Notes under the pieces: model-generated | Database searches by the model: none | What the model was told of the DNA's origin: nothing | What the model saw: only the letters and a program-made list of their open reading frames with translations | Shown: positions 7,340 through 44,514 of the stretch, in pieces | Layout: every line of letters begins with the position of its first letter | How positions within the stretch are numbered: the stretch's first letter is position 1 | Made by a program: the position numbers and the translations under genes | Assembly (NCBI GenBank): GCA_902521325.1 | Contig: CABYRE010000004.1 | Location: 3,743-67,742 of the forward strand | DNA length: 64,000 bases | Reading direction: 5' to 3' | From: an uncultured Alphaproteobacteria bacterium | GTDB lineage: Bacteria; Pseudomonadota; Alphaproteobacteria; HIMB59; GCA-002718135

Positions 7340-8353
7340 ATGTCTAACGACCAAAAAAAACTAACAGGCATCAATAACATTTCAAATGAGTGGTTTAGAG
7401 CTAACATAGATCGCAAAACACTTAAAAACCTCTCTAAAAGAACTGATTACGAGGGCTGGAAACATATTATTATTTTTACACTATCACTTACCGGCCTTGG
7501 TATCTTATCAGCTTACTTCTGGCAAACTTGGTGGTTTGTACCATTCTATCTCGCGTATTGTATGTTCTGGGGTGGAGCGGATGCTATTTGGCATGAGTGT
7601 GGCCATAGAACAGCTTTTAAAACACGAAAGTTAAATGATTTCTTTTATCATATTGCAAGCTTTATGAATAACTTTGAACCCGTTAGATGGAGATGGAGTC
7701 ATTCTCTACATCATAGTTATACCGCTTCAGTTGATCCTCACGATTACGAAGCTGATGGAAGTATTTTTTCCAAACACACACTTTTAAGTTTTTTAATTAA
7801 TTTTTTTCCAGGAATTGGATTTTTTACCATACACAAATCATTATATATTGAAATTATCAAACATGCTCTTGGAATTAAAACTGATGTCATGAGAGATTGT
7901 ATACCTCAAGATAAAATTCAAGATTGTATTAATAGTTCAAGAATTTTTGTTTTTCTTTGGATATCAATAATTTTTTCTTCAATTTACTTTAGCTCATTAC
8001 TCCCAATATTATTATTTTTAGTTCCAAAATTTTTTGCAACTTTCAATGGTATTTGGGGCATTACTCAACATATGGGTTTACAAGAAAATACAAAAGATCA
8101 TCGTCTATCTACTAGGTCTGTAAGATTGAACCCTGTATTTAGTTTTATATATTGGAAAATGGAATATCATATTGAACATCATATGTTTCCAATGGTCCCA
8201 TCTTACAATCTTCCTAAATTATATGAAGTAATAAAAGATCAGTTACCAGAACCACAAACTTTATACTCTGCATATAGAGATATAATTCCAGCTGTTATTA
8301 AAAAATCAAAAAATCCAGATTATTATATACCAGTTCAAGTTCCAAATAATTAA
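7340..8353 (+). CDS. Membrane fatty-acid-desaturase-fold di-iron oxygenase (paralog 1)
   Basis: Three His boxes HECGH, HSLHH and HIEHH with hydrophobic segments between them. Paralog of 14586..15581. Confidence 0.8.
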   Translation: MSNDQKKLTGINNISNEWFRANIDRKTLKNLSKRTDYEGWKHIIIFTLSLTGLGILSAYFWQTWWFVPFYLAYCMFWGGADAIWHECGHRTAFKTRKLNDFFYHIASFMNNFEPVRWRWSHSLHHSYTASVDPHDYEADGSIFSKHTLLSFLINFFPGIGFFTIHKSLYIEIIKHALGIKTDVMRDCIPQDKIQDCINSSRIFVFLWISIIFSSIYFSSLLPILLFLVPKFFATFNGIWGITQHMGLQENTKDHRLSTRSVRLNPVFSFIYWKMEYHIEHHMFPMVPSYNLPKLYEVIKDQLPEPQTLYSAYRDIIPAVIKKSKNPDYYIPVQVPNN

Positions 8354-8399
8354 ACTATACTTGACACATCTCTACCTTTAGTTTTATCTAAACATTAAT

Positions 8400-9836
8400 A
8401 TGGAATTAAGAAATTTTATTGATGGTAAATTCATTAATTCACTCTCTAGAAAAAACATTCCTGTTTTAAATCCAGCTAACCAAAAAATTGTTGGTAATAT
8501 TGATGAGGCTTTAGACGAGGAAATAGATTTAGCTTTTAAAGCTGCAAAAAGAGCATTTGATAAAAGAATTTTAGTAGATATGGATGTAAAAGATAAATCG
8601 AATATGATGAGAGCAATAGCTCAAAAATTAAGAGAGCGAAAAGAGGAAGGTGGTAAACTTCTTAGCCAAGAAAATGGTAAAACTATTAAACAATGTATTG
8701 ATGAATTCAAAGGTGCTGCAGATACCTTCGATTTTTATGCAGGACTCACAGATAAAATAGAAAATAAACTAATACCTTCTGGGCAAGATACTTTAAATTA
8801 TATTGTTCTTGAACCTTTTGGTGTATCTCTGCAAATCGTGCCGTGGAACTATCCTGTTTCTATATTTTCAGGTATGGTTGCACAAAACTGGATTGTTGGA
8901 AATACAATTGTTATAAAGCCCCCCGAGTTATGTCCTATATCCTCTAACTTTTACGGTCAAATTTTTGAAGACGTTGGTGTACCTGAAGGAATTATAAATA
9001 TTGTTCATGGTTACGGCGAAACAACTGGACGAAAACTAGTTCAACACCCTGGAAGTGATTATATTGTTTTTACAGGATCGCCAGAAGTAGCATCCGAAAT
9101 TCTGAAAGAAACAGCAGATAGAATTATACCTACTCATTTTGAATTAGGAGGAAAGTCTGCAGCTATAATCTATCCTGATGCTGACATTGACAAAGCTGTT
9201 GATAGTACAATTAAGGGAATTTTTAAACCTAATGCTGGTCAAATATGTGTAGCAATGTCTAGAGTTATTGTTCACCCAAAAATAAAAGATGAATATATGA
9301 CAAAGCTAGTTGCAAAAACTCAAAAACTAAAAATTGGCTCAGGAGACGAAGATGGAACTGAAGTAACACCTTTAATATCAAGTAATCAAATGCAAAGGGT
9401 ATCAAATTACGTGAAATCAGGAATACAATCTGGAGCTACATTGACAATAGGTGGAGATAAAGCTGAAAGAGATGATGGAAATTTCTATCAACCAACTATT
9501 TTTGATAACGTCAAAGTTGAATCTACAATTGCTCAAGAAGAAATTTTTGGTCCTGTAACATCAGTATTTGATTTTGAAGATGAAGAAGATGCAATAAATA
9601 TAGCTAACTCAACTAAATATGGACTAGCCTCTGGTGTATTTACAGCTGATGATCGAAAAGCTAAATGGACTGCAGATCGAATTCAAGCTGGAATTATTTG
9701 GCAAAATGATTGGTTTATAGATGGAAATAATCTCCCCGGAGGAGGATATAAAAGATCAGGATATGGAAGAGATGGCGGTGTAGATGGTGTATATAGCCAT
9801 GGACAAACTAAAAGAATAAGTAAAAGACTGTACTAG
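8400..9836 (+). CDS. NAD(P)-dependent aldehyde dehydrogenase
   Basis: Catalytic motifs ELGGKS and GQICVAMSR (Cys), plus EEIFGPV. Close paralog of 48497..49930. Confidence 0.9.
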   Translation: MELRNFIDGKFINSLSRKNIPVLNPANQKIVGNIDEALDEEIDLAFKAAKRAFDKRILVDMDVKDKSNMMRAIAQKLRERKEEGGKLLSQENGKTIKQCIDEFKGAADTFDFYAGLTDKIENKLIPSGQDTLNYIVLEPFGVSLQIVPWNYPVSIFSGMVAQNWIVGNTIVIKPPELCPISSNFYGQIFEDVGVPEGIINIVHGYGETTGRKLVQHPGSDYIVFTGSPEVASEILKETADRIIPTHFELGGKSAAIIYPDADIDKAVDSTIKGIFKPNAGQICVAMSRVIVHPKIKDEYMTKLVAKTQKLKIGSGDEDGTEVTPLISSNQMQRVSNYVKSGIQSGATLTIGGDKAERDDGNFYQPTIFDNVKVESTIAQEEIFGPVTSVFDFEDEEDAINIANSTKYGLASGVFTADDRKAKWTADRIQAGIIWQNDWFIDGNNLPGGGYKRSGYGRDGGVDGVYSHGQTKRISKRLY

Positions 9837-9865
9837 TTGACATTCGTAAGTAATTTTAGTTAAAC
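9837..9865 (+). promoter_or_regulatory. Candidate sigma70-type promoter for the SBP gene (TTGACA-N17-TTAAAC)
   Basis: Perfect -35 hexamer directly after the ALDH stop. The -10 is weak. Pattern match only. Confidence 0.25.
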
Positions 9866-9915
9866 TTTATTATTATTTATTATTATTATTATTCATTTTA
9901 TTCATGGGAGGAATT

Positions 9916-10911
9916 ATGAAAATTTTTAAAATATTACTTATTACTTTATTTCTTTTTCCAGTTTCTATGCAAGCTTATGCTGCACCAACTGGCCAAGATC
10001 TAGGTGATAAATGGTGCTCAGATGTAAAAATGCATTTCTATGCTGGAGGTCCTGAAGCTGGAGGTTTTGCAGGAATAGTTGCAGCAGGAGCTATGAATGC
10101 TATTAGAGATACTGGAGCTGATGCTGAAATTATATACTCAGAATGGGATTTTGAAAAAATGGTCCGTCAACTTAGAGAGTCAGTTGGACTTGGTGTTGAT
10201 GCTATTGCAATGATGGGGCATCCGGGAGATGAAGCTCTAATGCCTTTAGCAAAACAAGCTGCTGAAAAAGGTATTCTAATGACTTATCAAAACGTTGATC
10301 CATCAGGTGTAAGAGCAAAATTTGGTGGCGGATACGTAGGAGCAAATTTGGCAACTCAGGGAAAAGCTCTTGCAAGAGAAGCAATTAGGCAATTTGGTTT
10401 CAAAGCTGGAGATCACGCTATAGTTATGGTTCCTATTGGGGATTACGCTAGAGCTCAAAGAGAAGATGGTGCAAGAATCATATTTGAAGAACACGGAATG
10501 ACAGTTACTGTTCTTGATGGACAACCAGCTTATGCTTCCGATCCGAATATGACTATCCCAGTTTTCTCAGCAGCGTTAAATGCAAATCCTGAAACAAAAG
10601 TAATTGTTCACTCTGGAAGTGATGTAATGAATGTTGCAGAAGGTATTGCCAAAGCTGCAGGTTATGGGCCAAATGAGTTACTTCAAATTGGATTTGATAC
10701 TAGCCCACAAATTATGTCGGCGTTTGAAAAAGGATATGTTCATCTAACATCTGATCAACAACCTTTCCTTCAAGGGTATCTTCCAGTGTTATCACTTTGT
10801 CAAACAGCTGTACTTGGTACTGGTGCAATAAACCAAGATACTGGTGCAGGATTTGTTGATACAAATAACTATCAAGCTGTTAAAGCTCTTGCTGATGCAG
10901 GTCTAAGATAG
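9916..10911 (+). CDS. Sugar ABC transporter periplasmic substrate-binding protein (type I PBP, ribose/CUT2-like)
   Basis: Start moved to the ATG preceded by GGGAGG (9906-9911). Signal peptide MKIFKILLITLFLFPVSMQAYA. Followed by CUT2-type ATPase and permease genes. Confidence 0.8.
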   Translation: MKIFKILLITLFLFPVSMQAYAAPTGQDLGDKWCSDVKMHFYAGGPEAGGFAGIVAAGAMNAIRDTGADAEIIYSEWDFEKMVRQLRESVGLGVDAIAMMGHPGDEALMPLAKQAAEKGILMTYQNVDPSGVRAKFGGGYVGANLATQGKALAREAIRQFGFKAGDHAIVMVPIGDYARAQREDGARIIFEEHGMTVTVLDGQPAYASDPNMTIPVFSAALNANPETKVIVHSGSDVMNVAEGIAKAAGYGPNELLQIGFDTSPQIMSAFEKGYVHLTSDQQPFLQGYLPVLSLCQTAVLGTGAINQDTGAGFVDTNNYQAVKALADAGLR

Positions 10912-10921
10912 GAAAATATAT

Positions 10922-10947
10922 TGCTAACCCATTTTAATGGGTTAGCA
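10922..10947 (+). terminator. Intercistronic stem-loop after the SBP gene (11-bp perfect stem, 4-nt loop); partial terminator or mRNA stabiliser
   Basis: TGCTAACCCAT-TTTA-ATGGGTTAGCA, seen directly. The U-tract is weak (TTCAAAAATTT). Confidence 0.5.
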
Positions 10948-10958
10948 TTCAAAAATTT

Positions 10959-11705
10959 ATGGAAAATATCATTGAGCTAAATAATGTTACAAAAAGATTT
11001 GGCGGTATTACTGCTCTAAACAAAGCATCATTAAAAGTAACCAAGGGTGAAGTGGTAGGTTTAATAGGTGATAATGGCGCAGGCAAATCAACATTAATTA
11101 AAACACTAGTAGGCGTATATAGTCCTGATGAAGGTGATATTCTTATAAGAGGAAAAAAAATAAATGCTTGGAATGCACTCAAGGCTAGAGAGTCTGGTAT
11201 AGAAACTGTTTTTCAAGATAGAGCTTTAACTCCACAACAATCAATCGTTAAAAATATTTTTATGGGGAAGGAACTTAGATATCCATTTGGTTTTATAAAA
11301 GAAAAAGAACAAATTTTTGAAGCAAATAGATTAATAAGAGAGATAGGTTTTACGTCAAAACTAATAAACGCTGAATCTCCAGTTGGAAATTTATCTGGAG
11401 GTGAAAGACAAGGAGTAGCAATTGCAAGAGCAATTTATAATAAAGCAGAATTAATTGTTCTTGATGAGCCCACAAATAACTTATCATTAAATGAAACACA
11501 AAAAGTTTTTGATTTTGTCTTAAATGTAAAAAAATCAAATAGATCAGTTCTATTTATTGGTCATAATATTTATCATGTATACGACATATCAGATAGATTT
11601 GTAATTTTAGATAGAGGAGAAGTCGTTCATCAAATAAATAAGAATGATATATCTACTCCAGAAGAACTAATGAAGTTAATGCGAGAAACAATAAAGGAAC
11701 ATTGA
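10959..11705 (+). CDS. Sugar ABC transporter ATP-binding protein (single NBD)
   Basis: Walker A GDNGAGKST, signature LSGGERQ and Walker B LIVLDEP. Confidence 0.9.
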   Translation: MENIIELNNVTKRFGGITALNKASLKVTKGEVVGLIGDNGAGKSTLIKTLVGVYSPDEGDILIRGKKINAWNALKARESGIETVFQDRALTPQQSIVKNIFMGKELRYPFGFIKEKEQIFEANRLIREIGFTSKLINAESPVGNLSGGERQGVAIARAIYNKAELIVLDEPTNNLSLNETQKVFDFVLNVKKSNRSVLFIGHNIYHVYDISDRFVILDRGEVVHQINKNDISTPEELMKLMRETIKEH

Positions 11706-12679
11706 TGAGTAAGAAAAATTCATATCTTAGTAACTACTTTCACAGAAATGGAAGAGCTCTAGGAAGCATTGGATACTTTGTACTTTTAATGGTAATTTTT
11801 TTAATAGGTGCGCCAGAAGCTTGGATAAGACCAAACCTTCATCAATCAGTATTTGTCATGATGCCAACTTTGATATTTTTAACTATACCATTAGTTTTTT
11901 TAGTTGCATCTGGTGAAATAGATCTTTCTTTTGCTTCTACTTACGCTGTAGCAGCTTACGTTTTTGCTTTACTCGTTAAAAATGGAGTCGATCCAGCTAT
12001 TTGTTTAGTTCTGGGCATTTTTACTGGAGCAGCTATAGGTGCTCTTGTTGGAACATTAATTGTTGTATTTAGACTTTCCTCTCTTGTTGCTTCACTTGGA
12101 GTATTATTTTTACTGAGAGGTGTAATTCTCTTATTATCAAACAGCAGATCAATTACGATTATGGAAGTAGAGAACCACTGGATCTACCCTCTTTTAGTTG
12201 GAAATTTTTATGGCTTCCCAATGCAAATTTTTTGGGCAGCAATATTTGTAATTTTTTGTTACTATTTTTTTAACAAACATGTTTTTGGTATTCATATTCA
12301 GCATGTAGGAGATAATTCTGTTAGTGCAGAACAGATGGGTATTAATGTAAATGCTGTTAAGATTAAAGCTTTCATGTTTGTGGGTGTCGGCGCTGCTATT
12401 GGTGGAATTTTTACAACGATGATTACTTATACATTTTTTCCTACTCAAGGATTTGGTTATTTATTGCTTGCTCTAGCTGCTGTTTTTGTTGGAGGCACTC
12501 CTTACTGGGGAGGGTTAGGAACTATTATTGGAGCAGTATTTGGCGTTGGTATTATTGCCTATATGGAAATAGGAATTATTGCTATTGGCTGGAGTGGTGA
12601 GTGGAGGCAATTCTTTAACGGATTAATTATATTGCTAGCATTATTAGGACATCGGTTACACGGAGAAAGAGTTAGATAG
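11705..12679 (+). CDS. Sugar ABC transporter permease (CUT2 / RbsC-like)
   Basis: Multi-pass hydrophobic protein. Its ATG overlaps the ATPase stop (TGATG). The ORF track lists a TTG at 11702. Confidence 0.85.
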   Translation: MSKKNSYLSNYFHRNGRALGSIGYFVLLMVIFLIGAPEAWIRPNLHQSVFVMMPTLIFLTIPLVFLVASGEIDLSFASTYAVAAYVFALLVKNGVDPAICLVLGIFTGAAIGALVGTLIVVFRLSSLVASLGVLFLLRGVILLLSNSRSITIMEVENHWIYPLLVGNFYGFPMQIFWAAIFVIFCYYFFNKHVFGIHIQHVGDNSVSAEQMGINVNAVKIKAFMFVGVGAAIGGIFTTMITYTFFPTQGFGYLLLALAAVFVGGTPYWGGLGTIIGAVFGVGIIAYMEIGIIAIGWSGEWRQFFNGLIILLALLGHRLHGERVR

Positions 12680-12685
12680 TATTAG

Positions 12686-13468
12686 ATGATTAATGTTGTA
12701 ATTTGGAATGAAAATATTCATGAAGTAGAAAATGAAGAAGTTAAAAAAATTTATCCCAAAGGTATTCATAACTGCATAAAAGATTTTTTATCAACTGATA
12801 ATAGCTTAGAAATTAAAACTGCAACACTCAAAGAAGATCAAAATGGATTAAGTGAAGAATTATTAAAAAATTGTGATGTTGTTATTTGGTGGGGTCACAA
12901 AGCACATGAAGAGGTATTAGATAAGACAGTTGATTTAGTACAAAGACGAGTTCTTGAAGGAATGGGTTTGATAGTATTACATTCCGGACATCATTCTAAG
13001 ATATTTAAAAGATTAATGGGTACTAATTGTAATTTAACCTGGAGAGAATATGGTGAAAAAGAAAGATTATGGATATGCAATCCTGGCCATCCTATCTGTG
13101 AAGGTTTGGAGCCACATTTTGAACTAGAAATGGAAGAAATGTATGGTGAGCCTTTTCAAGTTCCATCTCCAGATGAAACACTTTTTACTAGTTGGTTTGA
13201 AGGAGGAGAAACGTTTAGATCTGGATTATTATATAGAAGAGGGAATGGTCAAATATTTTATTTTCGACCAGGCCATGAAGCTTATCCAACTTATCATAAT
13301 ATTAATGTGCAAATTGTAATTAAAAATGCAATACATTTTGTAAAACAGAAACATAAAGTTTTGTGGGAAGACATTCATTCTCCTACTCCAAAAAGTAATA
13401 GACCAAAACCTATTGAAAAGATTAGTAAGAAAGGTTTTAGTGTAGGACATCCAACAGAAGAAAAATAA
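12686..13468 (+). CDS. ThuA-like (trehalose-utilisation, class-I glutamine-amidotransferase-like fold) protein
   Basis: N-terminal VVIWNENIHE...YPKGIH and central VIWWGHKAH...VLHSGHHSK blocks are characteristic of the ThuA family. Paired with a Gfo/Idh/MocA gene, as in thuAB. Confidence 0.75.
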   Translation: MINVVIWNENIHEVENEEVKKIYPKGIHNCIKDFLSTDNSLEIKTATLKEDQNGLSEELLKNCDVVIWWGHKAHEEVLDKTVDLVQRRVLEGMGLIVLHSGHHSKIFKRLMGTNCNLTWREYGEKERLWICNPGHPICEGLEPHFELEMEEMYGEPFQVPSPDETLFTSWFEGGETFRSGLLYRRGNGQIFYFRPGHEAYPTYHNINVQIVIKNAIHFVKQKHKVLWEDIHSPTPKSNRPKPIEKISKKGFSVGHPTEEK

Positions 13469-13469
13469 A

Positions 13470-14525
13470 ATGAAAATTGGTATTGTCGGAACAGGAAATA
13501 TCTCTTCAAGGCATCTTGATGAATTTAACAATATGCCAAATGTTAATGTTGAAGCTGTTTGTGATACAAATCAAAAAAATTTAGAAATATTTTTATCAAA
13601 TAACAAAGATTCAGATATCAGAGGGTATTTGAGTTTAGGAGAGATGCTTGAAAAAGAAAAAACTTTTGATGGAATAAGTAATACAACGCCTGATAAGTTT
13701 CATAAAGAAACAACGTTGCAAATTTTAAAAAGTGGTTATAATGTTTTTTGTGAGAAACCACTTGCTGAAAATTTTAGTGATGCAAAAGATATGGTTAATG
13801 CAGCAGCTCAATCTAAAAAAATTAATATGGTTAATTTTACTTACAGAGAGTCAAGTGCATATCAAAAATTAGTTGAAATATTAAAATCTGGAGAAATTGG
13901 GAATCCGAGACATATTAGTGCTTGCTATTATCAGTCTTGGCTAGCAAGTAATAAATGGGGTGATTGGAGAGAGGAAGACAAATGGCTGTGGAGACTTTCA
14001 ACTAAACATGGAAGTAACGGTGCATTAGGAGATACAGGTGTTCATATTTTTGATTTTGCTGTTAATGCTGTAGGTGATATTAAAGAGATATGTACTGATT
14101 TAAAAACATACTTCGATAAAGGAAATAAAATAAAAGAATATACATTAGATGCTAATGATGGATTCAATTCGTTAGTGAGATTTGAAAATGGAGCTATCGG
14201 AACAATAACCAATACAAGATATGCAACTGGACATGCAAACTCATTGATTCTAGAAGTATTTTGTACGAATGGTGCTGTAAAAGTTGAGCTAGATGAGGAA
14301 AGGACTAAGTGGTCAACATTACATATTTGTATTGATGAAAATATTAATAAAATGTCATGGGATACAATTGAATGTCCAAAAACTCCAAGCAATTATCAAA
14401 ACTTTATAAAATCAATAAAAACAAATTTGAATATGCAGCCCGATTTTTATCAAGGCGCTAAAATTCAAAATATTATTGATAAATGTATAGAAAGTAATGA
14501 AATTGGAAGTTGGGTTGACATTTAG
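13470..14525 (+). CDS. Gfo/Idh/MocA family oxidoreductase (ThuB-like partner)
   Basis: N-terminal Rossmann motif KIGIVGTGNIS and an EKP motif (FCEKPLA). Confidence 0.85.
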   Translation: MKIGIVGTGNISSRHLDEFNNMPNVNVEAVCDTNQKNLEIFLSNNKDSDIRGYLSLGEMLEKEKTFDGISNTTPDKFHKETTLQILKSGYNVFCEKPLAENFSDAKDMVNAAAQSKKINMVNFTYRESSAYQKLVEILKSGEIGNPRHISACYYQSWLASNKWGDWREEDKWLWRLSTKHGSNGALGDTGVHIFDFAVNAVGDIKEICTDLKTYFDKGNKIKEYTLDANDGFNSLVRFENGAIGTITNTRYATGHANSLILEVFCTNGAVKVELDEERTKWSTLHICIDENINKMSWDTIECPKTPSNYQNFIKSIKTNLNMQPDFYQGAKIQNIIDKCIESNEIGSWVDI

Positions 14526-14585
14526 TGGGACAAAATAGTTAATATTTATCTTTTAATTTTCATGATAGTTTTATAAATAAAAGTT

Positions 14586-15581
14586 ATGCCAGAAAAATTA
14601 GATAATGTTGATGAAAAATGGTTTAGAGCCGAAATAAGTAAAAAAGATCTAAAAGAGTTATCAAGAAAAAGTGATCTTAAAGGATTACAACATGTAACCA
14701 TATACTTTATTCTCTTATTTATTTTTGGATATATGTCCGTAGCTACATGGGGAACATGGTGGACGATTTTATGGTTATGGCTATACGGTGTTCTTTTTTA
14801 TTCAAGTAACCCAATTTGGCATGAATGTGGACATAGAACTGCGTTTAAATCAAAATTTCTAAATGAATTTTTCTATCAAATTGGTTCTTTTATGACTGAT
14901 TTTGAACCAACTAGATGGACTTGGAGTCATTTTAGACATCATAGTAATACCTCTTCCGTTGCTGATCCTCATGATTTTGAAGCAGCTTTGTTTCATAATT
15001 ATCCAAGTCTGAAAAGTTTCCTATTTAGTTTTGCTCCGTTTTATGAACTTATTAAATTCAAAGACTCCTTTAAATTTGAAACTATCAAGCACGCGTTGGG
15101 AATTACGACACCTGTTATGAAGGAATGTATTCCTCAAAATGAAATTTGGAAATGTCGTCTTATTTCAAGAATACACGTTTCTTTATGGATTGCTTCTTTT
15201 GCTCTATCATTTTATTTAATGAACCCTCTTCCTGCATTATTAATATTTTTTCCTAGGTACTGGGGCAACATTGTTAACATATTTAATATGACTCAGCACA
15301 TAGGACTTCCAGAAGATATTAAAGATCACAGGTTCACAACTAGATCTGTACGTTTTAATCCAATTTTTAGTTTTTTATATTGGCACATGGAATATCATGT
15401 AGAGCATCATATGTTTCCTTCCGTACCGTCATACAACTTACCTAAATTAAGTGATTTAATTAAAAATCAATTACCTAAAGCAAATACTAGTTTATACGAT
15501 GCATATAGGGAAATTATACCAGCAATTATCAGGCAGCATAAGGATAATTCCTATTATATATCAAAAATTGTACCATCATAA
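14586..15581 (+). CDS. Membrane fatty-acid-desaturase-fold di-iron oxygenase (paralog 2)
   Basis: His boxes HECGH, HFRHH and HVEHH. Alignable end to end with 7340..8353. Confidence 0.8.
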   Translation: MPEKLDNVDEKWFRAEISKKDLKELSRKSDLKGLQHVTIYFILLFIFGYMSVATWGTWWTILWLWLYGVLFYSSNPIWHECGHRTAFKSKFLNEFFYQIGSFMTDFEPTRWTWSHFRHHSNTSSVADPHDFEAALFHNYPSLKSFLFSFAPFYELIKFKDSFKFETIKHALGITTPVMKECIPQNEIWKCRLISRIHVSLWIASFALSFYLMNPLPALLIFFPRYWGNIVNIFNMTQHIGLPEDIKDHRFTTRSVRFNPIFSFLYWHMEYHVEHHMFPSVPSYNLPKLSDLIKNQLPKANTSLYDAYREIIPAIIRQHKDNSYYISKIVPS

Positions 15582-15693: not shown

Positions 15694-15739
15694 ATAAGTA
15701 ATGATCGGATATTTGTTTTTTTATAATTTAGGAGGATTA

Positions 15740-17050
15740 ATGAAATACTCAATTAAAAGTCTAATAGTATTTATTTCTTCATTATTTTTTAGTTTCTCTG
15801 CATTTGCAGGAGGTCATGCTTATACTGGTCCAGATTTAACTGGCCAAAAGGTAGTTATGTTTGGTCCTTGGTTATCACCAGAACAAGAAACAATGAGAGA
15901 AGTTGGTGCTATATTTGAAAAAGCTACAGGAGCTACATTTGAATATGGTGGATCAGATAGTTTTGAACAACAAGTTATGATCGATCTAAAAGCTGGAAGT
16001 GCTGCTGATCTAGTTGTATTTCCACAACCAGGTCTAGCTGCAAACGCAGCAGCTATGGGAGGGTTAGTTCCTCTTGGAGATGACATAAAGCAAATGGTTT
16101 TAGATAACTATGCTGCTGGTCAATCATGGGTTGATCTCTCAACTTATGCGGATGAAAATGGTAATGATCAGTTTAATGCAATTTTCTTCAGAACAAATGT
16201 AAAAAGTTTAGTTTGGTATTCACCAGATAACTTTGAAGATAATGGTTACGAAGTACCTGGAACTATGGAGGAATTAATTGCATTAACAAGGCAAATGGCA
16301 TCAGATGGAAATACTCCATGGTGTATTGGTCTAGGTTCAGGTGCAGCAACTGGTTGGCCTGCAACTGACTGGATGGAAGATATCATGCTAAGAACGCACA
16401 CACCTGATGTTTATGACATGTGGGTATCCAACGAAATGCCTTTTAATGACCCAAGAGTTATTGAAGCAATGGATTTCTTTGGAACTTTTGCATTGAATGA
16501 TAAGTTTGTAAATGGTGGATCTAAAGCAGTAGCAACTACTGATTTTAGAGATGCTCCAAATGGACTTTTCACTTCACCTGCAGAATGTATGATGCATAGA
16601 CAAGCTAGTTTTATACCTGCATTTTTCCCTGAAGGTGTAGAAGCTGGTGTTGATTATGATTTCTTTTACTTCCCAGCATATGCAACTAAAGATTTAGGAA
16701 CTCCTGTACTTGGAGCTGGAACATTAGTAGCAGCTACTAATGATAACCAAGCAACAATAGAGTTTATTAAATTTTTAATGCATCCCGAAGCTCATGAATA
16801 TTGGATGGCTAAGGGTGGCTTCCTAACACCTCATAAAGGCGTTGACGGAAGTAAATATGCTAGTGAAACTTTTAGAAAACTAGGTGAAATTCTAACAGGC
16901 GCAACAACGTTTAGATTTGATGCGTCAGACTTAATGCCTGGTGCTATTGGTGCTGGAACTTTCTGGACTGGTATGGTTGACTATACTAACGGAAAATCTG
17001 CCCAAGATGTAACGGATGCGATCCAAGATAGTTGGGACGCAATTAAGTAA
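15740..17050 (+). CDS. Sugar ABC transporter substrate-binding protein (CUT1, family-1 SBP)
   Basis: Start moved to the ATG preceded by GGAGG (15731-15735). Signal peptide MKYSIKSLIVFISSLFFSFSAFA. Followed by MalF/MalG-type permeases and a MalK-type ATPase. Confidence 0.85.
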   Translation: MKYSIKSLIVFISSLFFSFSAFAGGHAYTGPDLTGQKVVMFGPWLSPEQETMREVGAIFEKATGATFEYGGSDSFEQQVMIDLKAGSAADLVVFPQPGLAANAAAMGGLVPLGDDIKQMVLDNYAAGQSWVDLSTYADENGNDQFNAIFFRTNVKSLVWYSPDNFEDNGYEVPGTMEELIALTRQMASDGNTPWCIGLGSGAATGWPATDWMEDIMLRTHTPDVYDMWVSNEMPFNDPRVIEAMDFFGTFALNDKFVNGGSKAVATTDFRDAPNGLFTSPAECMMHRQASFIPAFFPEGVEAGVDYDFFYFPAYATKDLGTPVLGAGTLVAATNDNQATIEFIKFLMHPEAHEYWMAKGGFLTPHKGVDGSKYASETFRKLGEILTGATTFRFDASDLMPGAIGAGTFWTGMVDYTNGKSAQDVTDAIQDSWDAIK

Positions 17051-17065
17051 CTTTTCAATTATTAG

Positions 17066-17100
17066 CAGGCGAACAATTAACTTGTTCGCCTGTTTTTTTT
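17066..17100 (+). terminator. Rho-independent terminator/attenuator directly after the SBP gene
   Basis: 11-bp perfect stem CAGGCGAACAA / TTGTTCGCCTG with a 5-nt loop, followed by T8. Confidence 0.8.
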
Positions 17101-17116
17101 ATATATTTACTCATTA

Positions 17117-18100
17117 ATGACTATCCTAAATTTAGTATTCATTGTTTTTTTAGGAGTATTATTTTTTATAGCCTACTTTCATATCTCAAATTATATTTTA
17201 GATGTTTATGGTAATAAAACTTTAAAGAGATTTAATTTTGAAAATTCAATCAGAGTCATAGTTTTTATAGCACCTGCATTTATTGTTTTATTTATTTTTA
17301 TTTTATATCCAGTATTTGAAACTATTAGGCTTAGCTTTTATGATAAATTTGGAAGAGAATTTGTTGGACTATATAATTACAAATGGGCAATTAACGACCC
17401 TGAATTTAGAAGAAGTATATTAAATAATTTAGTTTGGTTATTAGTTGTTCCGACTTTAAGTACTTTTTTTGGATTAGTCATTGCTAACTTAGCTGATAGA
17501 ATTTGGTGGGGATCAATTGCAAAATCTATAATATTTATGCCTATGGCAATATCATTTGTTGGTGCTGGAGTTATTTGGAAATTTATTTATGAATATAGAG
17601 GACCTGACAACACACAAATTGGATTATTAAATGCAATTATAGTTTCACTTGGTTATGAGCCACAAGCATGGTTAACAATACCAATGTGGAATAATTTCTT
17701 TTTGATGGCTATTATGATTTGGATACAAACTGGATTAGCTCTAGTTATTTTTAGTGCTGCATTAAGAAGTGTACCAAAAGAAATGCTTGAAGCAGCTAGA
17801 ATTGATGGAGCTAGTGAATTAAAAATTTTTTTTTCAATTATAATTCCCTATTTAGAACAAACGATACTTGTTATTTGGACTTTAATTACAATAATTGTTT
17901 TAAGAATTTTTGATATTATTTTTGCCATGACTAATGGGGAATGGCAAACTGGCGTCTTAGCTAACTTAATGTACGACTGGATGTTTAGAGGTGGTGGTGA
18001 CTCGGGAAGAGGAAGTGTTTTAGCTATTGTTATTATGATAGGTGTCATACCAATCTTAGCATGGAATTTATACAAACATAGACAGGAACAAAAAATTTAA
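17117..18100 (+). CDS. Sugar ABC transporter permease (MalF/UgpA-like)
   Basis: Six hydrophobic segments and an EAA-type loop (EAARIDGASELKIFFSIIIP). Confidence 0.88.
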   Translation: MTILNLVFIVFLGVLFFIAYFHISNYILDVYGNKTLKRFNFENSIRVIVFIAPAFIVLFIFILYPVFETIRLSFYDKFGREFVGLYNYKWAINDPEFRRSILNNLVWLLVVPTLSTFFGLVIANLADRIWWGSIAKSIIFMPMAISFVGAGVIWKFIYEYRGPDNTQIGLLNAIIVSLGYEPQAWLTIPMWNNFFLMAIMIWIQTGLALVIFSAALRSVPKEMLEAARIDGASELKIFFSIIIPYLEQTILVIWTLITIIVLRIFDIIFAMTNGEWQTGVLANLMYDWMFRGGGDSGRGSVLAIVIMIGVIPILAWNLYKHRQEQKI

Positions 18101-19239
18101 TGAAGAAATTTTCAATATCATCTATCTTGTCTCAATTACTACTACTGTTTTTTGTTATTATATGGATCATTCCTACATTTGGTCTTTTTATTAGCTCCTT
18201 AAGAGATAAAGATTTGTTAGCTATAAGTGGATGGTGGACTTCCTTAACTACTACAGAAATAAATGAAATTTATAGAATGTCGGGAATGGAAAGCCAAATT
18301 GAAGAAGATGGTTATTTCAAAATTAAAGGAAAGTTATTTGAAGTTAATTCAGGAAAAAAAATAGGAAGTTTTGGTATTACTTCAAAGAAAATTAATGAAT
18401 TTAATATTGGAGATGTAGCAATTTTTAAAGATGAAAGTGAAGTACTTCTTGATGAAGATGGAAATTATGAATGGAGATCAAGAACACAATTTACAAAGAA
18501 AAAAGGTAAAAGATTATTTACTACATCCTTAAGCCCTCCTGCATTTACTTTTGAAAATTATAGAGAAGTTTTATTCAAAGAAGGAATTGGCAGAGCTTTT
18601 ATTAATACAATGGCAGTAGCATTACCTTCAACACTAATTCCATTAATAATATGCTCTTTCTTTGCATACTCCTTAACTTGGATGAAATTTTATGGAAGAG
18701 ATACTTTATTAGCAATAATAATTGCCTCTCTTGTTGTTCCTCTTCAAATGTCTCTAATTCCAATACTTACAATCTATAATGATTTTGGACAATTATTTGG
18801 AGTAGCGGCTAAGTCCTATCCCGGTGTTTGGATGGCACATACTGGTTTTGGATTAGCCTCAACTACTTTTCTATTAAGAAATTTTTTAAAAAGCTTACCT
18901 AATGAAATGATGGAAGCTGCTAAAGTTGATGGTGCTTCTCATTATGATATTTTTTTACGCATAATTATTCCTCTTTCGATACCAGCTTTTGCTTCAATAT
19001 TTATTTTACAATTTTTATGGTGTTGGAATGATCTTTTAGTAGGTTTAGTATTTTTAGATCAGGTTCCAAGTGAAATAATATTAACCGCAAAATTAAAAGA
19101 ATTACTTGGATCTAGAGGAGAAAACTGGGAAATTTTAACTACTGGAGCTTTTGTATCAATGACCGTACCTTTATTTATCTTTTTTGCCTTACAGAGATAT
19201 TTTATACGAGGTTTAGTAGCTGGATCAGTGAAAGGGTAA
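18100..19239 (+). CDS. Sugar ABC transporter permease (MalG/UgpE-like) with enlarged first periplasmic loop
   Basis: EAA loop EAAKVDGASHYDIFLRIIIP and a TAATG junction with the upstream permease. About 130 residues lie between TM1 and TM2. Confidence 0.88.
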   Translation: MKKFSISSILSQLLLLFFVIIWIIPTFGLFISSLRDKDLLAISGWWTSLTTTEINEIYRMSGMESQIEEDGYFKIKGKLFEVNSGKKIGSFGITSKKINEFNIGDVAIFKDESEVLLDEDGNYEWRSRTQFTKKKGKRLFTTSLSPPAFTFENYREVLFKEGIGRAFINTMAVALPSTLIPLIICSFFAYSLTWMKFYGRDTLLAIIIASLVVPLQMSLIPILTIYNDFGQLFGVAAKSYPGVWMAHTGFGLASTTFLLRNFLKSLPNEMMEAAKVDGASHYDIFLRIIIPLSIPAFASIFILQFLWCWNDLLVGLVFLDQVPSEIILTAKLKELLGSRGENWEILTTGAFVSMTVPLFIFFALQRYFIRGLVAGSVKG

Positions 19240-19252
19240 ATACTAAAAAGTA

Positions 19253-19281
19253 TTGATTTTTCAATAAATATACCTTTAAAT
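19253..19281 (+). promoter_or_regulatory. Candidate internal promoter for the ATPase gene (TTGATT-N17-TTAAAT)
   Basis: Pattern match in a 103-nt spacer, which is unusually long for this operon. Confidence 0.25.
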
Positions 19282-19342
19282 ATAATTATATTTGTATGAT
19301 GATGTATTCATACACTTGAAAGATCGCTCAAAGGAGGATGAA

Positions 19343-20422
19343 GTGGCAGATATAAATATAAATACTGTTAATAAATATTTTGGAGACGTCCATGTAATTA
19401 AGGATATTTCTCTTGATATAAAAAGTCAATCATTCACAGTTCTAGTTGGTCCAAGTGGTTGTGGTAAATCAACTATGTTAAGAATGATAGCAGGACTGGA
19501 AGACATTAATTCAGGTACAATTTCAATTGATGGCCAAGTAGTAAATGATTTACCGCCAAAACAAAGAAATATCGCAATGGTATTTCAATCGTATGCATTA
19601 TACCCTCACATGACTGTATTTGATAATATGGCTTTTGGTTTAAAATTAGAAAAAAGATCAAAAGATGAAATTAATGAAAGAGTTAATGAGGCAGCAAGAA
19701 TTCTTCAAATAGAAGATTATCTTCAAAGAAAACCAAAACAACTTTCAGGTGGTCAAAGACAGCGTGTTGCTATTGGAAGAGCAATTACTAGAAAGCCAAA
19801 AGTTTTCCTATTTGATGAACCGCTTTCAAACCTTGATGCTGCATTAAGGGTTCAAATGAGAGTTGAATTAGCAAAACTGCATAATGAACTAGAAGCAACA
19901 ATGATTTACGTTACACACGATCAGACAGAAGCTATGACCCTAGCTGATGATATTGTTGTACTTGATACAGGTATCGTTTCACAAAAAGGATCACCACTAG
20001 AACTTTATGATAAACCAAATAATATGTTTGTAGGTGGATTTATTGGATCCCCAAAAATGAATTTCATTTCAAGTAAGATATTAAGCAAAAGTTCTGATGC
20101 TACAGAAGTTGATATTATGGGAATGTCAAAAATATCAGTCTCAAAAATGTCAGCGTCATCCTCAGAGGGTGATTCAGTTACTTTAGGCATTAGACCAGAG
20201 CACTTAATAGTAAATGGTGATGCAGATGGATCTTGGGAAAGTAAAGTATTTGTTGTCGAAAAGCTTGGTGACGTTTCTTACCTATACCTTGAAAAAGATG
20301 GAGAGCCATTAGTTGCTGAAACTGAAGGACATTCAGAAATCAAAGTTGGTGATACTGTAAAAGTTGGATTCCCTGCTGGAAGATGCCAATTATTTGATAG
20401 TTCAGGCGAAGCATTTAAATAA
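19343..20422 (+). CDS. Sugar ABC transporter ATP-binding protein (MalK/UgpC/MsiK-like)
   Basis: Walker A GPSGCGKST, signature LSGGQRQR and Walker B LFDEPLS, plus a C-terminal regulatory/TOBE-like domain. Start set at the GTG 5 nt after AGGAGG. The ORF track lists a TTG at 19292. Confidence 0.9.
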   Translation: MADININTVNKYFGDVHVIKDISLDIKSQSFTVLVGPSGCGKSTMLRMIAGLEDINSGTISIDGQVVNDLPPKQRNIAMVFQSYALYPHMTVFDNMAFGLKLEKRSKDEINERVNEAARILQIEDYLQRKPKQLSGGQRQRVAIGRAITRKPKVFLFDEPLSNLDAALRVQMRVELAKLHNELEATMIYVTHDQTEAMTLADDIVVLDTGIVSQKGSPLELYDKPNNMFVGGFIGSPKMNFISSKILSKSSDATEVDIMGMSKISVSKMSASSSEGDSVTLGIRPEHLIVNGDADGSWESKVFVVEKLGDVSYLYLEKDGEPLVAETEGHSEIKVGDTVKVGFPAGRCQLFDSSGEAFK

Positions 20423-20437
20423 TAGAATCGTATTAAT

Positions 20438-20475
20438 TATTGCCCCTAATATAAGGGGCAATACATCCCTTTTTT
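20438..20475 (+). terminator. Probable rho-independent terminator of the CUT1 operon
   Basis: Stem TTATTGCCCCT / AGGGGCAATA(A) with a 6-nt loop. A T6 run starts 6 nt downstream. Confidence 0.55.
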
Positions 20476-23715: not shown

Positions 23716-24375
23716 TTAAAGTTCCTCTATTGCCTTACCTAGACTTTCATAATCACTAAATACATTCAAAGCACCATTGTCAAATAATTCATTTTTCTCT
23801 CTATTTGAATGCCAATGTTTTCCTGCAGTAAGACCAAATACTCTTATTTTTGCTGCAGTAGCTGCTTTAACACCTACTCCACTATCTTCAATAATGACTG
23901 TTTCTTCTCTATCAAGTGAATTATCATTTAAAACCTTTAAGTATATATCTGGATCAGGTTTTGGTCTTTTAACCATATCAAATGAGTAAACCTGATCACT
24001 TAAAAATGTTTTATCTAAACCAACAATTTTCAAACCATCCAGAATTCTGTCTTTATTACTATTAGATCCAATGTAGTGATTTCTATCTGATTTACTAATA
24101 TAATCTTTTGCTCCTTCAACTAATTTTAAATCCTTTGAAAAGACCTCTGAAACAATCTCATATATTTCATTTGTAAATTTTTTTTTATTTTCAATATTAT
24201 ATTTTGCAGATAATAAATTTATTACTTCAACGGTTTTATTTCCAGCGTATTTATAAAATTGTTCCTCTTTAAAAGAATGACCAAATTTTTTAAAATATTT
24301 TGAAAATGCTTTAGAGACCAAAACTTCACTATCAACTATTACACCATCAAAATCAAAAATTATATTTTTAATCAT
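23716..24375 (-). CDS. HAD-superfamily hydrolase (beta-phosphoglucomutase / sugar-phosphatase-like)
   Basis: Motif I IIFDFDGVIVDSE and motif IV IEDSGVGVKAA. Confidence 0.75.
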   Translation of the reverse strand: MIKNIIFDFDGVIVDSEVLVSKAFSKYFKKFGHSFKEEQFYKYAGNKTVEVINLLSAKYNIENKKKFTNEIYEIVSEVFSKDLKLVEGAKDYISKSDRNHYIGSNSNKDRILDGLKIVGLDKTFLSDQVYSFDMVKRPKPDPDIYLKVLNDNSLDREETVIIEDSGVGVKAATAAKIRVFGLTAGKHWHSNREKNELFDNGALNVFSDYESLGKAIEEL

Positions 24376-24376
24376 T

Positions 24377-25477
24377 TTATATTTCTGTCTTTTTATATTC
24401 TGATTTATCTAACCAGTCAGGATTAATCTCGATACCCCAACCAGGAGTATCTTCGATTTTAACCATTCCGTTAGATATTTTAAAAGGATCACCTATAAAT
24501 AAATTCTGTTGCCATGGATAATAATCTTTACCCTCAATTGAAAATTCAAGATAGGGTCCTGAATTATTTATTGCTTTTAAAAAATGCATTGTGCAGATTG
24601 TTACTAAAGATAAATTAGCAGTATGTGGAGTGCATATAAAACCGCCTTTTTCAATAATTTTAGCGACCTTTAAAGCTTTTGTTAATCCTCCCATATACAT
24701 AACATCTGGCTGAAAAATATTTACAATTTTTCTGTTAACCATATCTCTCCAAATTCGCAGATCACAATCCTGTTCTCCCCCAGTTACATCTATCTTCAAA
24801 CTATCAGTAACCTTTTTGGTTTCTGCTGGCTTCCAGTAAGGACAAGGTTCTTCAAAATGAGTGACATTATTGTCTTCTAAAAGTTTGCCAATTTCTATTG
24901 CTTGATTAGAGTTATAGCAACTATTAGCGTCTACCATTTTAATTACACTTTTATCTAAAGATGAGTTTATTGTTTTTACTATACTAGCCGTTCTTCCTTC
25001 CCATTCATCAATCCCCCTTCCACATTCAGAGCCAACTCTAAATTTAAATGCATTAATGCCTTTTTCATCAAAGAGTTTTTTAAATCTATTTGCTTCATCA
25101 TCTGGTGTAATATCTCTTTTCATTGATGAACCATAAATTCTTAAATTACCAGGAGACCCTCCTATCAATGAAACTACAGGTTTACTTTCAATTTTACCTT
25201 TCAAATCCCACAACGCTGTATCTAAACCAGCAATTGCACGTAAAAGATATGATCCTGGAAATTTATGCTCTCTTTCAAAGATAAAATCTTCTAAATCATC
25301 AAAATCAAAATACTCTTTTCCTAAAACCCAGGGTGCTACTTGTTTGTGAAAAATTTGAGCTGTGATATCTGCATGATAAGTTGACATTTGACCATAACCA
25401 ATTGAACCATCCTCAACTGTTATTTTTACAAAACTTACATATGGTTTTGTGAATGTTTCAAGTTTAACAATTTTCAT
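24377..25477 (-). CDS. Enolase-superfamily enzyme (mandelate racemase/muconate lactonizing family, probable acid-sugar dehydratase)
   Basis: Metal-ligand pattern MVDAN / FEEP / GGEQD with N-terminal capping-domain architecture. Confidence 0.8.
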   Translation of the reverse strand: MKIVKLETFTKPYVSFVKITVEDGSIGYGQMSTYHADITAQIFHKQVAPWVLGKEYFDFDDLEDFIFEREHKFPGSYLLRAIAGLDTALWDLKGKIESKPVVSLIGGSPGNLRIYGSSMKRDITPDDEANRFKKLFDEKGINAFKFRVGSECGRGIDEWEGRTASIVKTINSSLDKSVIKMVDANSCYNSNQAIEIGKLLEDNNVTHFEEPCPYWKPAETKKVTDSLKIDVTGGEQDCDLRIWRDMVNRKIVNIFQPDVMYMGGLTKALKVAKIIEKGGFICTPHTANLSLVTICTMHFLKAINNSGPYLEFSIEGKDYYPWQQNLFIGDPFKISNGMVKIEDTPGWGIEINPDWLDKSEYKKTEI

Positions 25478-25480
25478 AAA

Positions 25481-27094: not shown

Positions 27095-27095
27095 A

Positions 27096-29205: not shown

Positions 29206-29260
29206 CTAACTTTAATATCTTATATAGCAATTTCTTGATTTTTAAAAAAATTTAAAAAAC

Positions 29261-29989: not shown

Positions 29990-30007
29990 TTGATTTTTAA
30001 ACTAGAT

Positions 30008-30030
30008 GCTAGGGCAATATTTGCCCTAGC
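30008..30030 (-). terminator. Intercistronic stem-loop just downstream of the SBP gene
   Basis: GCTAGGGCAA-TAT-TTGCCCTAGC, a 10-bp palindromic stem. No strong U-tract. Confidence 0.45.
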
Positions 30031-30042
30031 AAAATAATGTAA

Positions 30043-31254: not shown

Positions 31255-31329
31255 ATTTCCTCCATTTAAATATAGAACAGAGATAACATTAACAGGCTCT
31301 ATGAAGCAAGTTAGTTTTTGGATATTTCT

Positions 31330-32169: not shown

Positions 32170-32170
32170 T

Positions 32171-33902: not shown

Positions 33903-33905
33903 ATG

Positions 33906-35051: not shown

Positions 35052-35069
35052 ATTTATTTTACTTTAACA

Positions 35070-36932: not shown

Positions 36933-36945
36933 AACTAGTAATTTT

Positions 36946-39086: not shown

Positions 39087-39172
39087 TTTTAGTTTATTAA
39101 TTAATATTTAAATTTGTGTAAATTATAAATTATAGTTAAAAATTAAAAAATGGTTGAGAAATAAATGATTAA

Positions 39173-42979: not shown

Positions 42980-42994
42980 GATTATTTATGTTAT

Positions 42995-44512: not shown

Positions 44513-44514
44513 AT

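Follow-up and report, generated by a model that had tools for sequence, protein, structure and literature searches.

The nearest described counterparts of the locus considered here are the mocDEF genes of rhizobia, which are needed for catabolism of the rhizopine 3-O-methyl-scyllo-inosamine; this is the only genetic role reported for the family in the papers cited in PMC10107442 and PMC5789663. Root exudate whose main component is pinitol (3-O-methyl-chiro-inositol) induces mocDEF homologues 1.5-2.1-fold in R. mesoamericanum, and the chromosomal mocDEF homologues of another rhizobium were reported to be 60-79% identical to the MocD of S. meliloti L5-30. In the present work, we analyze a 64-kb stretch of DNA with a G+C content of about 30%, called the window below (contig CABYRE010000004.1, positions 3,743 to 67,742), which belongs to a SAR11 genome and to which all open reading frame (ORF) coordinates refer. 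Some of its proteins are exact matches to those of GCA_902514655.1, a single-cell assembly belonging to one series with the SAR11 genomes of the species scan below. The subject here is a plus-strand gene cassette that begins with DES1 (7340..8353) and ends with DES2 (14586..15581), two genes encoding predicted MocD-family oxygenases; between them lie genes for an aldehyde dehydrogenase (ALDH), a CUT2-type sugar importer, a ThuA-like protein and a Gfo/Idh/MocA dehydrogenase (GFO). Marine Alphaproteobacteria share this region as a conserved cassette for catabolic uptake, for which the O-demethylation of a methylated sugar or cyclitol is tentatively favored.

The cassette shares several traits with MocDEF and with rhizobial MocD-like clusters. 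Its oxygenases belong to the same subfamily of the FA_desaturase fold, with 38-39% full-length identity, the same His boxes and the same N-terminal motif, while CUT2-type solute-binding proteins (SBPs), GFO dehydrogenases and LacI regulators are associated, as in rhizopine and MocD-like loci. A Rieske ferredoxin resembling MocE and the PanB-like partner of the rhizobial MocD-like clusters also occur, but in sister cassettes of other genomes. Unlike MocDEF, the window lacks a Rieske gene, the marine cassettes lack a MocF-type reductase, and an ALDH, either a glycoside hydrolase of family 4 (GH4) or a ThuAB pair, and the second paralogue DES2 are added. The rhizopine locus differs further: neither MocR, MocC nor an iol gene set was seen in the annotated parts of the window, and the SBP of the cassette (SBP2) does not qualify as a rhizopine SBP (68 bits with that model, cut-off 420). 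The hosts, unlike the rhizobial carriers of MocDEF, are free-living oligotrophic marine bacteria.

A second point of comparison is the thuEFGKAB locus of rhizobia and Agrobacterium, whose route yields 3-keto derivatives of disaccharides. The window encodes a ThuA 56% identical to that of R. johnstonii pRL12 and a GFO 42% identical over its full length (E = 6e-93) to the ThuB-type product of the gene adjoining rhizobial thuA, and the two genes are adjacent and in the same order. Unlike ThuAB, this pair follows, and is co-oriented with, a CUT2 rather than a CUT1 importer, and oxygenase genes flank it. A CUT1 system does adjoin the cassette, yet its SBP could not be taken as ThuE-like, being unrelated to the SBP in the ThuE position of the rhizobial locus.

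Three further systems resemble the cassette by chemistry or by fold. Marine Flavobacteriia carry out a P450-dependent demethylation of 6-O-methyl-D-galactose that is coupled to formaldehyde detoxification (PMC6292453, PMC9400963). The activity proposed below, methyl-ether removal with release of formaldehyde, would be analogous to that of this P450/ferredoxin/reductase system in both chemistry and ecological role; the latter differs by its soluble haem P450 in place of a membrane di-iron enzyme, its setting in polysaccharide utilization loci and its host group. AlkB/AlkG and stearoyl-CoA desaturase (SCD) have the membrane di-iron His-box fold, and distant relatives of DES1 carry rubredoxin fusions as AlkB systems do; unlike these enzymes, the cassette shows no alkane or lipid genes, its partner protein is of the Rieske type instead of rubredoxin or cytochrome b5, and structure-based alignment of the DES1 model with the solved folds yields 12-16% identity. 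GntB, the L-arginine gamma-hydroxylase of guanitoxin biosynthesis, is also a membrane enzyme of the FA_desaturase fold and acts on a small and polar substrate. Its model is the top NCBIfam match of DES1, at 44 bits against a cut-off of 380, but GntB is biosynthetic, cyanobacterial and devoid of a transporter context.

The initial annotation of the window, made from the sequence alone, had described the two outer genes as paralogues with about half of their positions identical and all His boxes of membrane desaturases preserved. Both ORFs are present as annotated, with an all-plus-strand cassette between them, and this description holds. Over 329 aa, DES1 and DES2 share 51% identity and 68% similarity (E = 8e-118); they match PF00487 with 124 and 112 bits, respectively, and contain, as read from their translations, the boxes HECGH, HSLHH or HFRHH and HIEHH or HVEHH as well as a QH motif; these positions are invariant across an alignment of 65 homologues. 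DES1 has four predicted transmembrane helices, and its AlphaFold (AF2) model (pLDDT 91.8), with hydrophobic helices paired at 36-88 and 190-243, has the membrane desaturase/AlkB fold. Foldseek ranked desaturase-like subunits of chloroplast Ycf2-FtsHi complexes first for this model and AlkB next (8f6t, E = 0.016); SCD1 matches were weak (E above 0.7), and a sequence search of the PDB with DES1 matched nothing.

Despite their Pfam name, the two proteins are not lipid desaturases. NCBIfam models (GntB, DesA, DesB, CrtR) gave 20-44 bits against cut-offs of 380-500; the lipid desaturase and CrtR models did not exceed 39 bits (cut-offs 475-500), with DesA at 27-31 and DesB at 24-39 bits (cut-offs 500), and DES1 and DES2 reach none of the lipid models. 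No lipid gene stands beside the cassette in any locus examined, so that neither model score nor gene context agrees with acyl-lipid or acyl-CoA desaturases (DesA, DesB, SCD). The nearest annotated relatives of DES1 are instead the rhizobial MocD-like proteins (E ~1e-66), whose genes follow the order LacI, desaturase-family protein, MocE-family 2Fe-2S ferredoxin, FAD-dependent oxidoreductase and '3-methyl-2-oxobutanoate hydroxymethyltransferase' (PanB-like). One of them is annotated 'hydrocarbon oxygenase MocD-like', and in this comparison they stand in for MocD itself (S. meliloti L5-30). Because these relatives stand beside MocE-family ferredoxins, and FAD reductases as well, the likeness to MocD that had been put forward as an analogy is one of homology. 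With the fold, the three His boxes and a closer relationship to MocD homologues than to characterized lipid enzymes, DES1 and DES2 are, as judged from sequence, MocD-family membrane di-iron oxygenases. The subfamily is small: at 50% clustering, it comprises 100 representatives at E <= 1e-30 among 1.84 billion proteins, and some database entries label relatives 'stearoyl-CoA 9-desaturase'.

The distribution of the cassette was followed by a pattern scan of one genome per species, which found a relative in 557 genomes. The best 80 loci (numbered with the prefix L below) were examined, their ORFs being classed by BLASTP with reference proteins taken from the window and from the loci retrieved first, and gene counts were taken from the 61 loci with sufficient flanking sequence. 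These 80 loci come mostly from SAR11 single-cell genomes but also from Rhodobacteraceae/Paracoccaceae, MarineAlpha5, SAR116 and one gammaproteobacterium, and DES1, a member of the clade that goes along with the CUT2 transporter, keeps its position in the cassette in the 80 loci. The recurrent order is a divergent Rieske gene (optional), DES1, ALDH (optional), a PanB-like gene (optional), SBP, ATPase, permease, then either GH4 or ThuA and GFO, and lastly DES2 (optional). A CUT2 transporter is found in 56/61 loci, an ALDH directly downstream of DES1 in 51/61, ThuA with GFO in 44/61 and GH4 in 12/61, the last two never together (0/61). DES2 occurs in 30/61 loci, the PanB-like gene in 15/61 and the Rieske gene in 11/61, always with the PanB-like one. 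Since the complete order of the window, DES1-ALDH-SBP-ATPase-permease-ThuA-GFO-DES2, recurs in 30 of the 61 loci, the arrangement is not due to chance. This exact arrangement occupies one constant chromosomal site adjoining PGM and UDP-glucose dehydrogenase. Elsewhere in SAR11, the DES/CUT2 cassette sits between CUT1 permeases and a MalK ATPase, whereas the copies of Rhodobacteraceae and of the gammaproteobacterium are solitary, with GH4 and without a CUT1 system. The presence of GH4 in cassettes without CUT1 makes GH4, and by position ThuA and GFO, part of the DES/CUT2 unit.

The initial annotation had asked whether the bracketed arrangement is conserved in relatives. Conservation holds for the cassette, which extends over several marine lineages, but not for the bracketing by two oxygenases. 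In a neighbor-joining tree for which the rhizobial proteins served as outgroup, the DES1 clade as a whole has the DES2 clade as its sister; the latter takes in a DES2-like gene standing in tandem with a DES1-like gene (locus L083). The tree rules out DES2 as a recent tandem duplicate of DES1. DES2 is rather, as its placement indicates, an old paralogue appended to the end of the operon by one SAR11 lineage. Its orthologues are 77-95% identical, one cluster alone counting 2919 metagenomic member sequences, and it never accompanies a Rieske or PanB-like gene (0/61). Being an old paralogue present in about half of the loci, DES2 makes the bracketing a lineage-specific rather than a conserved feature.

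All these genes are maintained by purifying selection, with dN/dS values of 0.02-0.12 over DES1, DES2, ALDH, SBP2, ThuA and GFO (DES1 0.04-0.10; DES2 0.02-0.07). SBP2 is 86-94% identical across SAR11, Rhodobacteraceae, MarineAlpha5 and the gammaproteobacterium, against 63-75% for DES1 in the same cassettes (L066, L072, L074, L080-L082), which points to horizontal spread of the cassette, to unusually strong constraint on SBP2, or to both. Nucleotide identity to the window is mosaic: DES1 reaches 93% and DES2 81% with L011, and DES1 82% and DES2 91% with L032. This pattern within one operon indicates recombination between SAR11 lineages.

Inside the window, the initial annotation had listed an ALDH, an SBP, an ATPase with a single nucleotide-binding domain (NBD), a permease, a ThuA-like protein and a GFO between the oxygenases, and Pfam matches were obtained for all six. 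The genes are co-oriented from DES1 to DES2, with gaps of 1-67 bp or overlaps. The NAD(P)-dependent ALDH (8400..9836, plus strand as all genes of the cassette) matches PF00171 (Aldedh) with 490 bits but falls below every curated cut-off; it scores 433 bits with the betaine-aldehyde dehydrogenase (BADH) model TIGR01804 (cut-off 669), is nearest to betaine-aldehyde and aminoaldehyde dehydrogenases, and has BADHs as its top PDB matches (about 347 bits). Two loci bear on its role from another side. In the Rhodobacteraceae locus L074 (5908-9496), a three-subunit molybdenum hydroxylase of the CoxLSM/xanthine-dehydrogenase type adjoins the Rieske gene, and in L084 (11008-12668), from a different group of Alphaproteobacteria, the genes that come after DES1 encode XdhC and a MobA-like protein, both Mo-enzyme maturation factors. 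Such a Mo-hydroxylase may be an alternative aldehyde-oxidizing partner where the ALDH is missing.

The CUT2 importer is complete, with a Peripla_BP_4 SBP, a BPD_transp_2 permease and a sugar-type ATPase. SBP2 (9916..10911), a ribose-type periplasmic binding protein with a signal peptide, matches PF13407 (Peripla_BP_4); its longest ORF opens at 9904, but 331-aa homologues fit better with 9916, the start first proposed. Directly 3' of its stop codon, a consensus scan located a palindromic hairpin with an 11-bp stem (10922..10947), possibly an intra-operon attenuator or mRNA stabilizer. The ATPase (10959..11705, 248 aa) is atypical of CUT2, with a single NBD (one PF00005, ABC_tran, domain) in place of a fused double NBD, and it matches only the N-terminal halves of double-NBD sugar ATPases in NCBIfam. 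The permease (11702..12679) carries PF02653 (BPD_transp_2) and is matched weakly by the ribose and arabinose permease models.

The ThuA-like protein (12686..13468, PF06283) gives 316 bits with the ThuA-like structure 1t0b. The ThuB-type GFO (13470..14525), with a GFO_IDH_MocA Pfam match, has a scyllo-inositol/L-glucose dehydrogenase and 6a3f as top PDB matches and a sub-threshold levoglucosan dehydrogenase model as top NCBIfam match; it was also considered as a GH109-type NAD-dependent glycosidase, but no such PDB matches appeared and sugar and inositol dehydrogenases ranked highest instead. The ThuAB-like component announced by the initial annotation is therefore backed by its identity to the rhizobial pair, yet it is interchangeable, since GH4 takes the same slot in other cassettes. 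That GH4 is divergent, nearest to an alpha-galactosidase model (279-288 bits, cut-off 486) and also to the alpha-galacturonidase LplD. Catalysis by GH4 enzymes opens with the NAD-dependent oxidation of a sugar hydroxyl, and the same has been proposed for ThuAB.

Sister cassettes also reveal a PanB-like protein, whose gene is absent from the window (L066 12573-13352; L074 11074-11871; L007 13020-13820; L104 11344-12144). The gene always goes with MocD-like ones, be it in the clusters of rhizobia and Marivivens, in the marine cassettes around DES1 or in a SAR11 clade with 326-aa MocD-like proteins, and the marine and Marivivens versions are 45% identical. A genuine PanB, and hence a link to pantothenate, was ruled out by model scores (98-136 bits against PanB cut-offs of 207 and 272) and by missing active-site residues: in the alignment with E. 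coli PanB, a deletion covers the GDSLG segment and the equivalents of Asp45, Asp84, Lys112 and Glu114 are missing or replaced, while those of His136 and Glu181 are kept. In E. coli PanB these residues serve in metal and keto-acid binding. The family, labelled '3-methyl-2-oxobutanoate hydroxymethyltransferase', is probably misannotated.

Fuller cassettes shed light on electron supply too. The small gene divergent from DES1 encodes a Rieske protein with the MocE family as its top model (TIGR02377, 116 bits, cut-off 136), and it directly adjoins DES1 in the 11 loci that contain it. Relatives of DES1 at 35-42% identity are fused to a C-terminal Rieske domain, one of them also to an FNR-type reductase, and at a greater distance fusions to rubredoxin occur, some of which also include rubredoxin reductase (P0359, P0362, P0364, P0365, P0378, P0389 and P0482-P0484 for all these fusions). 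Rieske neighbors and Rieske fusions together argue that the DES family consists of electron-transfer-dependent oxygenases with a Rieske-type donor.

The chemistry is best approached from the contexts of the wider family. On a plasmid of Marivivens sp. LCG002 (L104 8938-18960), the genes for a MocD-like protein, MocE and the PanB-like protein adjoin a TIM-barrel gene, a CUT2 transporter, iolG and iolC; this organism is a cultured marine carrier, tractable for the study of O-methyl-inositol demethylation. In Acidiphilium, these MocD-like, MocE and PanB-like genes adjoin three GFO genes and several TIM-barrel genes. Together with the genetics of mocDEF and the induction of its homologues by pinitol-rich exudate, these contexts favor the O-demethylation of a methylated cyclitol or sugar, for which the P450 system of marine Flavobacteriia offers a functional precedent. 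In the resulting scheme, the CUT2 importer would bring in a monosaccharide-sized carbohydrate or cyclitol bearing a methyl ether or a similar alkyl decoration, and DES1 and DES2 would hydroxylate the O-methyl carbon at the expense of O2 and two electrons, the hemiacetal then collapsing to the free hydroxyl compound and formaldehyde. The ThuA/ThuB-type pair, or GH4 in other cassettes, would oxidize a ring hydroxyl to a ketone and so open the molecule to further breakdown, while the ALDH would oxidize the aldehyde by-product and, in fuller cassettes, the degenerate PanB-like protein would probably handle the one-carbon unit. The two oxygenases would most likely differ in the position that they attack or in the methylation pattern of their substrates. 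Electrons would normally arrive through the MocE-like Rieske ferredoxin, the adjacent gene of which the lineage of the window would have lost, with the donor encoded elsewhere. We give this sequence of uptake, O-demethylation by the DES oxygenases and oxidation by a ThuAB-type dehydrogenase a little less than an even chance of being correct.

Several observations weigh against it. To our knowledge, the family has no member with a known substrate, and MocD itself has never been characterized biochemically. A sensitive phmmer search and a six-frame scan for Cys motifs revealed neither a Rieske protein nor a MocF-type reductase nor a ferredoxin anywhere in the 64 kb, as the initial annotation had noted in leaving the electron donor open; the donor would have to be encoded elsewhere, and the Rieske and PanB-like genes of fuller cassettes answer the question in part. 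A MocF-type reductase, present in the rhizobial and Acidiphilium clusters, was found in none of the 80 marine loci. The rhizopine model is the top NCBIfam match of SBP2, but a weak one, and the AF2 model of SBP2 is nearest to monosaccharide- and cyclitol-binding proteins at about 20-25% identity, a remote likeness to any liganded structure. The likeness of the ALDH is to dehydrogenases of aminoaldehydes and betaine aldehyde rather than to known formaldehyde dehydrogenases. GH4 and ThuAB are known to act on glycosides, whereas CUT2 SBPs usually bind ligands the size of a monosaccharide. No iol genes were seen in the annotated parts of the window, which leaves a cyclitol product without an obvious downstream route here. 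Lastly, the very high conservation of SBP2 makes horizontal spread probable, and the loci are then not fully independent evidence.

The ligand of SBP2 is constrained little by comparison. A structure search with its model returned generic monosaccharide binders only, at about 20% identity, from which no ligand can be inferred. The plasmid contexts of its nearest relatives (Microvirga, Photobacterium, Phyllobacterium, Shinella) are generic sugar-acid neighborhoods, with no rhizopine locus among them, and a relative in a 6.2-Mb genome has an unrelated context. In a Chloroflexi genome, a homologue of about 55% identity is followed by an aldo-keto reductase and a GH31 enzyme, which hints at a small glycoside as ligand instead.

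These limits on the SBP2 ligand, the Chloroflexi context and the lack of visible iol genes turn hydroxylation of a carbon outside any methyl ether, or cleavage of a heteroside aglycone, into a serious rival, although we regard it as unlikely. The oxygenases would hydroxylate a deoxy or C-methyl sugar or cyclitol at its methyl or methylene group, or a small heteroside such as glycosylglycerol at its aglycone carbon, in the latter case by a reaction comparable to the ether cleavage of alkylglycerol monooxygenase, and the ALDH would convert the organic aldehyde to an acid. An ALDH placed directly after DES1 in most loci, its affinity with dehydrogenases of substituted aldehydes rather than formaldehyde, and the Mo-hydroxylase or Mo-cofactor maturation genes that adjoin where it is missing are all in keeping with such an aldehyde. 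GH4 and ThuAB as partners point to a glycoside, as does the Chloroflexi homologue; other SAR11 paralogue clades reside in clusters resembling those for deoxy or branched sugars; and the weak top match, GntB, is a C-hydroxylase of a free amino acid. What holds this alternative below O-demethylation is that genetics supports a single role in the nearest family, one that involves a methyl ether, and that a PanB-like partner recurring in three clades is more easily understood as a one-carbon handler.

The two MocD-like SAR11 clades of 326 and 333 aa, found by a search with DES2, illustrate these other settings. Around the 326-aa gene (L093 9001-9981) lie a split transketolase, an FGGY kinase, a TIM-barrel isomerase, a CUT2 transporter, PhyH, a GFO and a PanB-like gene; around the 333-aa gene (L095 9001-10002) lie a GFO, an SDR, Amidohydro_2, an aldo-keto reductase, 2OG oxygenases and an ApbA/PanE-like reductase. 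Judged by such neighborhoods, the MocD-like family as a whole is wired to carbohydrate-type gene clusters.

The CUT1 sugar module that follows the cassette (15701..20463, plus strand, identified by Pfam matches) raises a different question. It consists of an SBP (15701-17050), permeases (17117-18100 and 18100-19239) and a MalK-type ATPase (19292-20422) followed by a terminator-like hairpin (20438-20463), and it may belong to the pathway of the cassette or to another. Its SBP was considered as an orthologue of the glucose-binding SAR11_0769, but the PDB search gave no match to 8HQQ. One could suppose that two modules have become adjacent by an accident of insertion: DES1, ALDH and the CUT2 importer would form one pathway, ThuA, GFO and DES2 would serve the CUT1 substrate by a 3-keto route as in thuEFGKAB, and the bracket would be devoid of functional meaning. 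Rhizobial thuAB does come after a CUT1 transporter, ThuA and GFO adjoin MalK in the SAR11 genomes where the cassette lies between CUT1 permeases and MalK, DES2 is missing from about half of the loci, and a hairpin scan revealed no terminator between DES2 and the CUT1 SBP in the window. The exchange of ThuA and GFO for GH4 in cassettes without CUT1, where the two never coexist, speaks to the contrary, as does the divergent LacI gene that several sister genomes carry between DES2 and the CUT1 SBP and that leaves ThuA, GFO and DES2 in the CUT2 operon; the CUT1 SBP, moreover, is not of the ThuE type. We therefore hold this division into two modules to be improbable.

Oxidative cleavage of a C-S or C-N bond is more improbable still, and very unlikely in our estimation. 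The oxygenases would desulfonate sulfoquinovose or its glycerol glycoside, or N-demethylate an amino sugar or inosamine, with the sugar aldehyde passing to the ALDH. Hydroxylation next to a sulfonate or an amine does give an aldehyde, and established routes for sulfoquinovose bring together a glycosidase, an oxygenase and an enzyme that deals with the aldehyde; the resemblance of the ALDH to aminoaldehyde dehydrogenases and the GH4 or GH31 partners of related clusters agree with this. The cassette, however, encodes neither a sulfite exporter nor a sulfite oxidase, such chemistry is not known from any family member, and the PanB-like partner would be left unexplained. That DES1 and DES2 are ordinary acyl-lipid desaturases or hydroxylases for membrane adaptation, placed among sugar genes by coincidence, is suggested by the FA_desaturase family name and by the 'stearoyl-CoA 9-desaturase' entries, but scarcely deserves belief given curated desaturase scores of 24-39 bits against cut-offs of 500, a CUT2 linkage that holds over several bacterial lineages, Rieske ferredoxins rather than lipid genes as partners and fusions, and MocD-like proteins as closest annotated relatives.

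Other features of the window may be recorded here. Strong hairpins stand directly 3' of both SBP genes within the apparent operons, that of SBP2 at 10922-10947 and that of the CUT1 SBP at 17064-17094, and their position would fit differential mRNA stability or attenuation yielding a surplus of binding protein. Rfam matched no RNA family or riboswitch in the whole window, and a promoter scan gave fewer matches than shuffled sequence and is uninformative. Positions 24300-40003, mostly on the minus strand, hold a second carbohydrate cluster (Pfam assignments via locus L089) with a SIS-domain protein, a CUT1 SBP and three permease ORFs, a Gfo/Idh/MocA dehydrogenase, a GH20 hexosaminidase-family enzyme, a GHMP (galactokinase-like) kinase, a TauD-family Fe/2OG dioxygenase and an SDR. 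The dioxygenase within this sugar cluster suggests that a sugar decoration might again be removed oxidatively. Positions 41022-52195 (Pfam via locus L090) encode a GFO, an SDR, an altronate-dehydratase-like GD_AH protein, an Fe-ADH, three further ALDHs, a glutamine-synthetase-like protein and an alpha/beta hydrolase.

Literature searches on MocD or rhizopine with SAR11, on the mechanism of ThuA/ThuB and on rhizobial pinitol demethylation found no description of the DES/CUT2 cassette; the only near mention is a 2007 remark on a mocD-like read in a deep Mediterranean metagenome. Routine labels such as 'fatty acid desaturase' and 'stearoyl-CoA 9-desaturase' are corrected here for the DES genes, and the PanB-like family is flagged as an annotated pantothenate enzyme without the PanB active-site residues. 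SAR11 is the most abundant heterotroph of the surface ocean, with a small genome and few catabolic genes. A conserved and strongly selected cassette in so small a genome makes a common component of dissolved organic matter its likely target. A broader proposal, which we regard as unlikely, is that SAR11 and other dominant marine Alphaproteobacteria possess an unrecognized family of membrane di-iron oxygenases with at least four paralogue clades, each tied to a carbohydrate cluster, stripping methyl or alkyl decorations from the sugars and cyclitols of dissolved organic matter and feeding the one-carbon units into tetrahydrofolate-linked oxidation; the PanB-like protein would then be a new hydroxymethyl or formaldehyde-to-folate transferase, and the donor in the lineage of the window would not be of the Rieske type. 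Should the oxygenases demethylate methylated sugars or cyclitols, a class of compounds known from marine organic matter would gain an enzyme that is still missing, carbohydrate use would be linked to one-carbon oxidation in SAR11, and the MocD family, reportedly put forward on genetic grounds in 1998, would gain its first testable biochemical setting.

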